A stretch of DNA of 64,000 bases from a virus (Duplodnaviria > Caudoviricetes), in IMG/VR virus record IMGVR_UViG_3300026094_000002; one strand, written 5' to 3'. Of this stretch, positions 14,583 through 24,490 are shown in pieces. The notes below the pieces were generated by a model. That model ran no database searches. It saw only the letters and a program-made list of their open reading frames with translations, and was not told the DNA's origin. Both the position numbers and the translations under genes were made by a program. The first letter of the stretch is position 1; the number at the start of each line of letters is the position of its first letter.

Positions 14583-14774
14583 TTAATTATTATTAACGGG
14601 GAGTGCCTTTTCTACTTCAGCAACAGTTGCACGAGCAACCTCAAAGTTTGCTGCAGTTACAGTTTCATAATATGAACGCAACCACTCTGGCTGAATGAAT
14701 CTGGACACAGAATTATAATTTTTCTCAATGTTGTTGAGAAGTTCTTGTGTTGAAAAATGTTGAATGTAACTCAT
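14583..14774 (-). CDS. Hypothetical protein (63 aa) preceded by the conserved RNA leader
   Basis: AAAGGAG SD; shares leader architecture with hsp20. Confidence 0.75.
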   Translation of the reverse strand: MSYIQHFSTQELLNNIEKNYNSVSRFIQPEWLRSYYETVTAANFEVARATVAEVEKALPVNNN

Positions 14775-14780
14775 AATTAT

Positions 14781-14846
14781 CTCCTTTTGGTAAGCGAGTT
14801 ATAATTGGCAAACCTATAATAGCGTTTGACAACTGATTTTATTTAT
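14781..14846 (-). promoter_or_regulatory. Late promoter plus structured 5' leader (copy 1)
   Basis: ATAAATA...TTGTCAAAC-G-CTA-TTA-TAG-GTTTGCCAA...CTCGCTTA...AAAGGAG. Confidence 0.65.
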
Positions 14847-14912
14847 CATTTTATTGTGCAGTGCAAAATAAATTTAAGATCTGAGAATTTTACTAACATC
14901 ATAAATATTAAG

Positions 14913-15188
14913 ATGAATAAAAACACTGCTGACCAAATTCGTGAAACAATCAACTTGCTTGAACAAGAAGAACAACAGTTAATCACACAACCAAACGTCA
15001 TGCTTTTAGATATTAGTTCTTATGAACTGACATCTTTAATGAAAGAGTTTCGTTCAGAGCAAGAATCATATAGTAAAGCCGGTGACAGAGCCCAAGTAAT
15101 GTTTTACGACCCCTCCGAAAAAGAAGAGTTTAAAAAATTTCTCAAGTCCAAAAACATCGGCTATGATGAAATGGGCGGTGATTCTTAG
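14913..15188 (+). CDS. Hypothetical late protein (91 aa)
   Basis: Start re-assigned to MNKNT, 5 nt after ATAAATA (14901-14907). Confidence 0.7.
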   Translation: MNKNTADQIRETINLLEQEEQQLITQPNVMLLDISSYELTSLMKEFRSEQESYSKAGDRAQVMFYDPSEKEEFKKFLKSKNIGYDEMGGDS

Positions 15189-15364
15189 AATTCTGGCTGC
15201 AGAATAGTCCAAAGACCATACAGTACGGCAAGTGCTGCTACAATTGATGCAATAGGCTTAAGCAGAAAGAAAGATAATCCAGCAGCAATTAGCACTACTC
15301 CGTCCCATGTCGTCCTTTCTGAAAACCGTGAAGTAATCCAATTAAAAATAAAAAAGTCTTTCAT
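15185..15364 (-). CDS. Small membrane protein (59 aa, absent from ORF track)
   Basis: MKDFFIFNWITSRFSERTTWDGVVLIAAG...WTILQPEF*; AGGAG SD. Confidence 0.7.
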   Translation of the reverse strand: MKDFFIFNWITSRFSERTTWDGVVLIAAGLSFFLLKPIASIVAALAVLYGLWTILQPEF

Positions 15365-15433
15365 TTGTTTCTCCTATAATAAAATTCATTGACCTAATAA
15401 TATCTATACATAAATAACCAAAAGGAGGAAATT

Positions 15434-15718
15434 ATGTTTAATTTTATTAAACGCCTGTTTGGTGGAAATACACCAACAGAATCTCAGCAAGTTGCATCAC
15501 AAAAACCTGCTGAAAAGAAACCAGCCACGCGGTCAACTACTAAAAAAACCACTACTGGTTCAACTAAGAAGGCAACTGCCACCAAAACTAATACTGCTGG
15601 TGCCAAGAAGACCGCGAGTAGTACCAGCAAGACTGGCACCAAAAAGAGTGCAACTACTGGAAGAAAAACCAGCACCACAGGTACCAAAAAGACAACTACT
15701 AAAAAGTCGAACACTTAA
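15434..15718 (+). CDS. Lys/Thr-rich histone H1-like protein
   Basis: Low-complexity K/T/A tail; ATAAATA promoter, AAGGAGG SD and downstream terminator. Confidence 0.7.
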   Translation: MFNFIKRLFGGNTPTESQQVASQKPAEKKPATRSTTKKTTTGSTKKATATKTNTAGAKKTASSTSKTGTKKSATTGRKTSTTGTKKTTTKKSNT

Positions 15719-16767
15719 AGAACCTCGACACATTCAGTTTCAGCCGGGCAATTTGTCCGGCTTTTTTGTATCCATCGGTCTAACAAATCAGCCGATGCAA
15801 GATTCTTGGCCTTGGCTTCCACTTGAATATCAGCCCATTCCCAAAATTCTAACATTTGTTCATTTTGTGCATTGTTCCACATAAAGTCGGAGTGTGCTCT
15901 CAACTTTGTCTTCTTGAATCCAGCAGATAACAGTGACTGCATATCTGGGAAAATATCGGGGTCATGTCCGTCAAGAAGATCTTCACGACACTGACTATAG
16001 TGCACTACAGGACGAGCACCCCGCCAACTTTCCAAAATATAATTTACACGATCATCATGCGGACTAAAATATTCACCTGTCTTAACCCAATGATGATGCA
16101 CATCAAAGACAATCGCAGCAACATCTCGCAATTCAATGAGGTCATCAATGCCAATTGTAAACTCATCGTTTTCTAATGTAAGGCAATTGCGAAGTTCTGG
16201 GCTCATGCGATTGATTACTTCACGCATTGCCCCCGGTCCACGGCGACCACTTACATGCACATTGATTTTGAAATCCTGAAACTCTTTTCCATAACCCATC
16301 CAACGAGCCAAGTCTGTATGGTATTCCATTTCTGCAAGACTGCTCTCTACAATCTCTGGATTATCAGAAACTAAACAGCAGAACTGTCCGGGGTGGAAAC
16401 TAAGACGAACATCTAACTTACGTGCAAGGTTGCCCACAGGAGCAAAAATTGACTCAAGGTGTTGCTGAACGCTCGGCTGCTGCCACCAGTCTTGCCAATT
16501 AGATTCTGTATATCCTTGCAACATCTCAGAGCCAAGTCGGACTTGTCGCAACTCAGGCTCTAAGGAGCCCACGCGTTCAACAAGGTTATATGCAGCACGG
16601 GCGTTAAAATTCATTAACTCCCACTGTCTTTCTACAGCATCTTCAGGGTGTTCACGAAGCCACTTCATGGTAGTTGACCTACCATTTAAGTCGCGGTTAA
16701 GGGAATTAGACTTAGCACTCATGTCGCTAAGCCACTTACAGCAAAATCCGATACGTTTATTTGTCAT
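15715..16767 (-). CDS. uvsE: UV damage endonuclease (UvsE/UvdE)
   Basis: RIGFCC, RLSFHPGQF, INVHVSG, LENDE, DVHHH, AHSD, VEAKAKNLA; start re-assigned to MTNKR. Confidence 0.93.
   Translation of the reverse strand: MTNKRIGFCCKWLSDMSAKSNSLNRDLNGRSTTMKWLREHPEDAVERQWELMNFNARAAYNLVERVGSLEPELRQVRLGSEMLQGYTESNWQDWWQQPSVQQHLESIFAPVGNLARKLDVRLSFHPGQFCCLVSDNPEIVESSLAEMEYHTDLARWMGYGKEFQDFKINVHVSGRRGPGAMREVINRMSPELRNCLTLENDEFTIGIDDLIELRDVAAIVFDVHHHWVKTGEYFSPHDDRVNYILESWRGARPVVHYSQCREDLLDGHDPDIFPDMQSLLSAGFKKTKLRAHSDFMWNNAQNEQMLEFWEWADIQVEAKAKNLASADLLDRWIQKSRTNCPAETECVEVL
15742..15767 (+). terminator. Rho-independent terminator of the H1-like gene (inside uvsE antisense)
   Basis: AGCCGGGCA-ATT-TGTCCGGCT then TTTTT. 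Confidence 0.8.
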
Positions 16768-22816: not shown

Positions 22817-23605
22817 ATGTACTTGTCATTTGATTTAATTTCAGATTTACATCTTGAAACTCGAGATGGCTTTAACTGGGATGGACAGCCAACCAGCCAA
22901 TGTTGTGTGGTGGCTGGAGATATTTCTAAAAATATTCAGGATACGGTTTCTTGTCTTACCCATTTGTCCCAATGCTACAAAAAAGTCGTTTATATTGATG
23001 GTAATGCAGAGCATCGTTGGAATTATTCTGATCTTGGTTCAAGTTATCAAACCTTAGTTGAAGAATTGCAAAAAATACCAAATGTTATTTTCCTGCAAGA
23101 TAACATGGTCATAATCAATGGTGTTGCGATAGTCGGTACCAATGGCTGGTGGACATACGACTTCAATCCCAACATGGATTTTGAAAACTCAGTAAAATAC
23201 GCTGTTGATAGATATGACATTAATGTTGGTGATGCAATGACACTACGTGCTATGGCAATTAATGATGCGAATTATCTTGCAAACACTGTCAACCGGTGTC
23301 AGACAATGCCAGATATTAAGAAAATTGTTGTTGTTACACATACTGTTCCTCACGAAATGATTACAAAACACGATGAAGAATTTGACGATGATCTTCAGTA
23401 TAATCTGTTGGGCAATTCATATATTAAACAAATTTTAGAACAAGACACGGAAAGAAAAGTTGATACGTGGTGCTTTGGACATTACCACAAAGATGTTGAT
23501 TCTGTTATTAATAATATCCGATATGTTAATAACTGCTTGGGTGAAAAGGGATCAACTTGGGCCAAGTCTGTTTATCACCCAAAGCGTATTGAAGTAATAA
23601 TTTAA
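22817..23605 (+). CDS. Calcineurin-like metallophosphoesterase
   Basis: SDLH, AGD, GNAE (GNH variant), THTVP, FGHYH. Confidence 0.85.
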   Translation: MYLSFDLISDLHLETRDGFNWDGQPTSQCCVVAGDISKNIQDTVSCLTHLSQCYKKVVYIDGNAEHRWNYSDLGSSYQTLVEELQKIPNVIFLQDNMVIINGVAIVGTNGWWTYDFNPNMDFENSVKYAVDRYDINVGDAMTLRAMAINDANYLANTVNRCQTMPDIKKIVVVTHTVPHEMITKHDEEFDDDLQYNLLGNSYIKQILEQDTERKVDTWCFGHYHKDVDSVINNIRYVNNCLGEKGSTWAKSVYHPKRIEVII

Positions 23606-23916
23606 TCTGCTTCGGGCTCAATTTTAATATTTAAAGGATACCCGTTGCTACGTGCACTTACTGTAATCTCAATGCCCTTTTGTTCTGCAATCTCATATGG
23701 AAGAACTGCCACACACGCAGATCCCGCTTCATGAACTTCTTCAGTAATCTTTTGAGCAGTAGCCTCAGTATAATTAAGATGATTCATCAAACTTTCAACA
23801 ACAAAATCATATGCAGTACTATTGTCATTAATATAAATTAGTTGGTACATTGGTGGCTCACGCAACTCTGTATTAATTTCTACTTTTGTCTCGCTTGATG
23901 CGGATGATGTTGTCAT
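23602..23916 (-). CDS. clpS: Clp protease adaptor ClpS (divergent pocket)
   Basis: PPMYQLIYIND...FVV...EVHEAG...EIAEQK...YPL. Confidence 0.88.
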   Translation of the reverse strand: MTTSSASSETKVEINTELREPPMYQLIYINDNSTAYDFVVESLMNHLNYTEATAQKITEEVHEAGSACVAVLPYEIAEQKGIEITVSARSNGYPLNIKIEPEAD

Positions 23917-23940
23917 TTGTTTCCTCGTAAATTAAATTAG

Positions 23941-23967
23941 TAGAGCAGGGTCTAAGACCCTGCTCTA
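23941..23967. terminator. Perfect 12-bp hairpin between hsp20 and clpS
   Basis: TAGAGCAGGGTC-TAA-GACCCTGCTCTA. Confidence 0.65.
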
Positions 23968-23985
23968 TAGTTTGCAAGAGACTGA

Positions 23986-24423
23986 TTATCCCTTTTGGGT
24001 AATTGCAATAGACTTAGGCTTCATTGTCTCAGGGACAATACGCTCTAAACTAATAGTAAGAATTCCATTCTCAATAACCGCATTATTTACCTCTACATAT
24101 TCGGCAAGCGTAAATGAACGCGTGAAGTCTCTTGATGAAATACCATGGTAAAGATATTCAATATCTTCGTTTTTGTTTTCCTGTCTACCTGTAACAGTTA
24201 GGTGTCCTTCATGGTATTCAATATCTATCTCTTCTTTATTGAAACCAGCAACTGCCACCTGAATTTCATAACGATCTTCATCAACACGAACGATGTTATA
24301 TGGTGGATAATTGCCATTGGAACCAGCGGTATCAACTTGATCCATTACGCGATCAAAAATTCGATCCATTCCAATTGTATTTCTGTAAAACGGTGATAGG
24401 TCTAATGAAGTAATTTTAGTCAT
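23986..24423 (-). CDS. hsp20: Small heat shock protein (Hsp20/IbpA-like)
   Basis: NYPPYNI, VAVAGF, YLYHGISSRDFTRSFTLAE, NGILTI. Confidence 0.95.
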   Translation of the reverse strand: MTKITSLDLSPFYRNTIGMDRIFDRVMDQVDTAGSNGNYPPYNIVRVDEDRYEIQVAVAGFNKEEIDIEYHEGHLTVTGRQENKNEDIEYLYHGISSRDFTRSFTLAEYVEVNNAVIENGILTISLERIVPETMKPKSIAITQKG

Positions 24424-24429
24424 TGTTGT

Positions 24430-24490
24430 CCTCCTTTATTAAGCAAGTGACTAATAGTGCAACCCAAGTTGGCGTTGCACATGTATTTAT
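24430..24490 (-). promoter_or_regulatory. Late promoter plus structured 5' leader (copy 2)
   Basis: ATAAATA-CAT-GTGCAAC-G-CCA-ACT-TGG-GTTGCAC...CTTGCTTA...AAAGGAGG. Confidence 0.65.

Follow-up and report, generated by a model that had tools for sequence, protein, structure and literature searches.

Putative ROSE-like RNA thermometer leaders before hsp20 and a 63-amino-acid protein gene in an uncultured jumbo phage

Why should a phage carry one kind of structured leader before two genes, a small heat-shock gene and a gene for a 63-amino-acid (63-aa) protein? The question is raised by a 64-kb stretch (called the window) of the genome of an uncultured jumbo phage of about 305 kb (IMG/VR record IMGVR_UViG_3300026094_000002), in which hsp20 (leader at site B) and a 63-aa open reading frame (ORF; leader at site A) are preceded by similar elements. 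The initial annotation, made from the letters alone, had described at both sites a late promoter, a hairpin with a bulged G, a conserved octamer and a strong Shine-Dalgarno (SD) sequence, and had proposed a covarying translational element that binds a protein or senses temperature. All strings quoted there were found in place, both copies lying on the minus strand (sequence check), and a structured translational leader common to the two genes was borne out by an independent model and by folding. ROSE-like thermometers are a textbook means by which bacteria regulate small heat-shock genes, and the leaders at sites A and B are, judged by sequence and predicted fold, short two-hairpin ROSE-like leaders of the class of the Pseudomonas ibpA RNA thermometers.

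Two leaders of one structure in the window

The features of the two sites were as follows.

Site B, leader of hsp20
24490-24484, minus strand: ATAAATA (sequence)
24484..24494, minus strand: promoter-like box, a TATAAT overlapping ATAAATA (sequence; 10/12 as a sigma-70-like promoter)
24457..24480, minus strand: hairpin I, with a 7-bp lower stem, bulged G at 24473, 3-bp upper stem and 3-nucleotide (nt) loop
24447-24440, minus strand: octamer CUUGCUUA (sequence)
24437-24431, minus strand: SD sequence AAAGGAG (sequence)
24431..24447, minus strand: hairpin II core, anti-SD CUU-G-CUU (24447-24441) paired with SD AAGGAG (24436-24431), bulged G at 24444
24416..24454, minus strand: outer helix of hairpin II, UUAGUCA (24454-24448) paired with UGACUAA (24422-24416), in the minimum free energy structure of the extended sequence
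23986..24423, ATG at 24423, minus strand: hsp20, an IbpA-like small heat-shock gene of 145 aa (P0001; Pfam HSP20 3.7e-21, PHROG 432 1.6e-40)

Site A, leader of the 63-aa ORF
14846-14840, minus strand: ATAAATA (sequence)
14840..14865, minus strand: promoter-like region, a TGCASTGCA box (14865-14857) and GATAAATA (14847-14840), conserved in five of five orthologous leaders
14805..14832, minus strand: hairpin I, with one U.C mismatch in the lower stem, bulged G at 14823, upper stem CUA/UAG and loop UUA
14798-14791, minus strand: octamer CUCGCUUA (sequence)
14787-14781, minus strand: SD sequence AAAGGAG (sequence)
14781..14798, minus strand: hairpin II core, anti-SD CUC-G-CUU (14798-14792) paired with SD AAGGAG (14786-14781), bulged G at 14795
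14583..14774, ATG at 14774, minus strand: the 63-aa ORF (P0002), a predicted two-helix hairpin

Both hairpins were predicted by RNAfold at both sites, including the pairing of the octamer with the SD sequence in hairpin II, which had been overlooked in the initial annotation. The conserved octamer reported there is present at both sites, but it is not a separate motif, being the ROSE anti-SD motif U(U/C)GCU. A core pattern AACGCYANNNTRGGTT occurred twice in the window, at sites A and B only, against 0.11 occurrences expected. Because this pattern was derived from the same data, an independent test was made with a covariance model (R2) built from 44 other phage hsp20 leaders (IMG/VR), holding no window sequence, and the copy search was run over the entire 64-kb window with filters off. 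The R2 score was 55.1 bits for site B (E 2e-12) and 33.5 bits for site A (E 1e-6); elsewhere in the window the next match was at 13.4 bits (E 0.24, positions 58726-58792), which lies within a 535-aa ORF and was treated as chance. The window thus holds exactly two copies, of which site A is a member on independent evidence.

The compensatory change proposed from the two copies proved to be real, across the 44 hsp20 leaders as well as nine copies from different genes. The element was present in 44 of 44 distinct IMG/VR hsp20 leaders (47-80 bits), with 98.1% of pair cells being standard pairs, as compared with 40-61% when the 3' partners were slid by one to three columns. Double-change cells numbered 79 against 28.9 in shuffles, none of 500 shuffles being as high, a count that is not a probability given that the 44 leaders are related, so that the slid controls are the fairer comparison. 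Five of the eight pairs of hairpin I change on both sides in these leaders, and variation in the SD helix is almost solely from C-G to U-G, which is the Y of U(U/C)GCU. The nine copies from different genes were 100% paired, with six pairs changed on both sides, and pairing of the U(U/C)GCU motif with the SD sequence held in 96-100% of cells across relatives. RNAalifold on a plain MAFFT alignment recovered hairpin I only; the alignment of hairpin II required an explicitly stated structure and model-based realignment. At site B the outer helix surrounds the SD sequence plus the UG of the start codon, and in 42 of 45 hsp20 leaders the nucleotide 5' of GUCA covaries with a synonymous position, the third base of Thr codon 2 (A:U in 27, U:A in 13, G:C and U:G in one each, and a mismatch in three). 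In a subgroup of hsp20 leaders (L042-L046, L053, L055 and L056) the anti-SD reads CUUCGUUU instead of CUUGCUU, the bulged G being shifted by one position with every SD base still paired.

By E-value, the Rfam scan gave one meaningful match, ROSE_3 (RF02523) at site B, with 35.0 bits (E 3e-6) where the gathering score is 43 bits. It spanned the entire model (1-69); the two hairpins and their bulged Gs were all in register, and hairpin I of site B aligned with hairpin I of ROSE_3. Relatives scored 22-36 bits against the same family. The full-length match of site B, although sub-threshold, goes half way towards refuting the novelty that had been supposed for the leader. ROSE_3 comprises the short two-hairpin ROSE-like thermometers of Pseudomonas ibpA (Krajewski et al. 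2013, PMC3669281), and the ROSE-like class is defined by a U(U/C)GCU motif that forms an imperfect pairing with the SD sequence within the 3'-proximal hairpin (Krajewski et al., PMC3669281). Such an SD-paired motif was found at site B (CUUGCUU) and at site A (CUCGCUU), each facing AAGGAG with a bulged G, and an additional, more stable 5' hairpin (hairpin I) was found at both; a small heat-shock gene (HSP20) follows at site B and not at site A. Membership is by the structural definition of the class, the Rfam ROSE_3 cut-off not being reached, and on present sequence evidence the leader belongs, as a divergent element, with the ROSE-like leaders and does not constitute a new RNA class.

The 63-aa protein belongs to no Pfam or PHROG family. 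Its predicted two-helix hairpin (AF2 pLDDT 85.6) returned generic helical hairpins only in fold and atlas searches, none of them informative. Protein searches found only four relatives, P0003 (84% identity), P0124 (60%), P0125 (52%) and P0126 (48%), on contigs from saline-lake and brine metagenomes, and a viral contig scan with the 63-aa protein gave no match. The leader is kept before all four orthologues (26-43 bits) with compensatory changes in hairpin I (L071, L098, L100 and L101), in that AAC/GUU has become AAU/AUU, the U.C mismatch G.U and the upper stem CUA/UAG CUUU/AAAG, while the anti-SD, the SD sequence and the promoter-like TGCASTGCA-N-GATAAATA stretch are fixed. This retention with compensatory changes indicates that the association of leader and 63-aa gene is old and maintained. 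It also makes it hardly credible that the two sites are unrelated look-alike hairpins or that one is a recent, unmaintained copy left by recombination: such an origin would agree with the octamer alone being at chance level in the window (three found, 3.3 expected), but the independent model places site A at E 1e-6 and the compensated leader persists in orthologues down to 48% protein identity. For P0125 (L100:801-1043), the publicly called gene of 80 aa begins within the RNA leader; the conserved start lies 18 codons downstream (MSY...) and gives 62 aa.

Copies and target genes in other phages

Two to three leader copies were found in each of five jumbo-phage records of 262-345 kb, where the targets other than hsp20 are GroES (Cpn10, 1.9e-32) and small helical proteins of 80-91 aa. 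In two nearer relatives the second copy stands before proteins of 83-87 aa. The small helical proteins form one family (80-87-aa group versus 91-aa family, hhalign 98%), for which the protein collection includes over 1,400 homologues. When the 63-aa and 91-aa families were compared directly by profile, the probability was 0.3%, and comparison with the intermediate 80-87-aa group gave a weak match (51.9%, E 1.5e-4, 43 columns); the promoter regions of the 63-aa and small helical families look similar, and kinship of the two is about as probable as its absence. Phasin_2 matches on two of the 80-87-aa proteins were below threshold and offer a lead only. Many members of the 91-aa family (P0007, P0012, P0016 and others) bear the JGI name 'ATP phosphoribosyltransferase', which looks spurious given their length of 91 aa and the absence of a Pfam match.

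Cultured phages also carry the element before hsp20 (25-45 bits), namely Methylophilales phage Melnitz-3, Sinorhizobium phage Phosso, cyanophages S-RSM4 and P-SSM4, and Pelagibacter phage HTVC115P; the leader is not annotated in these five records, where coding sequence (CDS) features alone are given at that place. In Synechococcus phage S-RSM4 (L103), regA, encoding a translational repressor, lies directly upstream of hsp20 and its ROSE-like leader. At L070:1501-2000 (record G003, 175577-176070) a ROSE-like leader of 37.9 bits is followed by only an 8-codon ORF and then by a near-consensus TTGACA-N17-TATACT promoter and groES-groEL; the 8-codon ORF may be what is left of a target gene, or may encode a leader peptide.

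The ribosome-site hairpin and temperature

At 37 °C and at both sites, the hairpin II core is much less stable than hairpin I, with a stable hairpin I (-11.9 kcal/mol) and a weak core (-2.5 kcal/mol) at site B and values of -5.2 and -2.9 kcal/mol at site A for hairpin I and the core. This difference matches the design in Pseudomonas, where between 25 and 42 °C melting is confined to hairpin II and the GC-rich hairpin I remains closed (PMC3669281). Of the two functions originally offered, thermosensing is the best reading, given the anatomy of ROSE-like RNA thermometers, and no supporting evidence was obtained for a protein-binding element. Both leaders are likely to act as ROSE-type thermometers that mask the ribosome site, plus the start codon at hsp20, with the structure resting on covariation and model fit and the temperature response on the likeness to Pseudomonas.

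In such a mechanism transcription would start a few bases after the ATAAATA/TATAAT box, and the stable 5' hairpin I would, if it resembles its Pseudomonas counterpart, probably help folding as a scaffold or stabilise the mRNA. In the weak hairpin II, as covariation and model fit show, U(U/C)GCU pairs imperfectly with AAGGAG around the bulged G and so hides the ribosome-binding site, and in the hsp20 copy the outer helix N-GUCA : UGAC-N, as its covariation with a synonymous codon position shows, also encloses the start codon. Warming would melt hairpin II and allow the 30S subunit to bind, as extrapolated from experiments on the Pseudomonas elements. Hsp20 and the 63-aa protein would thereby be coupled to temperature post-transcriptionally, without a host heat-shock sigma factor, and the two are probably co-translated upon a temperature rise.

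Several results weigh against a thermometer. The predicted unpaired fraction of the SD sequence at site B was about 0.4 throughout 4 to 50 °C, with no clear melting signature, in a calculation by nearest-neighbour rules that handle the non-canonical pairs of ROSE hairpins poorly; the cost of opening the ribosome site was high at site B (9.4 kcal/mol at 25 °C, fourth among 18 comparators) but ordinary at site A (6.6 versus a median of 5.6), and neither this cost nor the SD accessibility shows a switch by itself; site A has no heat-shock gene downstream and gave no ROSE_3 match at E up to 10; and the ROSE_3 score of site B is itself sub-threshold. The flat SD accessibility and the ordinary opening cost would suit a temperature-independent throttle or mRNA stabiliser that has kept the ROSE shape, holds translation at a low, constant rate and shields the 5' end, as would the presence of non-chaperone genes among the targets and the suggestion that Pseudomonas hairpin I stabilises the transcript (Krajewski et al., PMC3669281). 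Such a throttle is unlikely, since any pairing would serve it, and yet the weak, bulged SD helix is nearly invariant across phages of very different hosts; other targets are the chaperones hsp20 and groES, and melting between 25 and 42 °C has been shown for the homologous hairpin II of Pseudomonas (PMC3669281).

A further alternative is an operator for a protein or small RNA, in which hairpin I or the SD hairpin would be recognised by a factor of phage or host origin (a RegA-type repressor, for example, or ribosomes containing phage bS21) that co-regulates the genes. It would account for the UGCCG...CGGGU atop hairpin I, conserved beyond pairing needs in most hsp20 copies, and for the position of bS21 (in the window) or regA (in S-RSM4) directly upstream of hsp20. 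It is nevertheless quite improbable: site A and its orthologues swap the upper-stem sequence (CUA/UAG, CUUU/AAAG) and keep the shape alone, Pseudomonas elements with the same hairpin sequence function both in E. coli reporters and in vitro with no factor added (PMC3669281), and no candidate binder was identified.

No paper on ROSE-like leaders in phages was found in the literature searched. Selection has maintained the element in phages that infect very different hosts, cultured phages included, and it has also spread to genes other than small heat-shock genes. If the leaders sense temperature, phage chaperones would be made according to temperature without host sigma-32, and genes behind extra copies would be candidate stress factors, among them that of the 63-aa protein, for which a stress role may be inferred. 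It can be suggested, tentatively and with rather more doubt than for thermosensing itself, that in jumbo phages the ROSE thermometer, which reviews place on bacterial small heat-shock genes, has become a portable post-transcriptional module defining a heat regulon of hsp20, groES and the widespread small helical protein family, of which the 63-aa protein may be a shortened member; if so, the small helical proteins would be undescribed phage heat-stress factors. The cultured carrier phages make direct testing feasible.

The late promoter of the initial annotation is plausible. ATAAATA was found 14 times in the window against 28.9 expected, at least nine of the 14 copies lying 5-65 nt before an ORF start, and its depletion and this position fit a phage promoter box; most copies stand immediately 5' of ORF starts with an SD sequence. 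A T4-type late promoter is defined by a TATAAATA box that lies 6-10 nt before the start of the transcript and is recognised by a gp55-type sigma factor, and the candidate boxes are AATAAATA at site B and GATAAATA at site A. However, site B can alternatively be read as a sigma-70-like TTTAAA-16-TATAAT, and many relatives carry a near-consensus TTGACA-N17-TATAAATA. No sigma-32-type box was found at the leaders, and neither hairpin I was called as an intrinsic terminator. The palindrome-like TGCA(S)TGCA box at 14857-14865, about 10 nt upstream of the site A GATAAATA box and 11 nt before ATAAATA, is invariant in all leaders of 63-aa orthologues and absent from the hsp20 promoter, and similar boxes precede leaders of the 83-91-aa family (L068, L069, L112 and L113); it could be an operator or a -35 substitute.

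The hsp20 gene lies in a cluster of one orientation, encoding ClpX, ribosomal protein bS21, Hsp20 and ClpS.

23602-26001, minus strand: proteostasis cluster, with a ClpX-like ATPase (24796-26001), bS21 (24512-24751), Hsp20 (23986-24423) and a ClpS adaptor (23602-23916)

The ends of upstream ORFs suggest that bS21 is also 5' of hsp20 in L001 and L004. Two tRNA genes lie elsewhere in the window, at 1590-1660 and 1747-1828 on the minus strand (Rfam tRNA, 63.9 and 51.6 bits).

Comparison with known thermometers

The phage leaders share with ROSE_3 of Pseudomonas ibpA the arrangement of two hairpins in a 5' untranslated region (a putative one in the phage) of about 60 nt, a stable hairpin I that has one bulged G and is topped by 3 GC-rich base pairs, a U(U/C)GCU motif imperfectly paired to the SD sequence in hairpin II and, for the hsp20 copy, the position before an IbpA-type small heat-shock gene. 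They differ in scoring under the Rfam cut-off (35, 27 and 22 bits), in having a candidate phage ATAAATA/TATAAT promoter box, not a sigma-32 promoter, in an SD helix without the flanking G-C clamps described for Pseudomonas, and in occurring also on genes other than small heat-shock genes. In addition, the AUG lies within an extra covarying helix in the phage hsp20 copies, whereas it is unpaired in Pseudomonas (PMC3669281).

Classical ROSE (RF00435) and the E. coli-type ibpA ROSE_2 (RF01832) are likewise leaders of small heat-shock genes with a U(U/C)GCU anti-SD and a bulged G in the 3'-proximal hairpin, but are longer than the phage leaders and have three to four hairpins. The closest bacterial IbpA loci fetched (Enterobacterales) gave ROSE_2-type matches only and none to the phage model R2. 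Among phage mRNAs, the cIII RNA thermometer of phage lambda also makes translation dependent on a temperature-sensitive RNA structure; it differs from the leaders described here in being unrelated in sequence, in switching between two alternative structures instead of melting like a zipper, and in controlling a lysis-lysogeny factor, not a chaperone.

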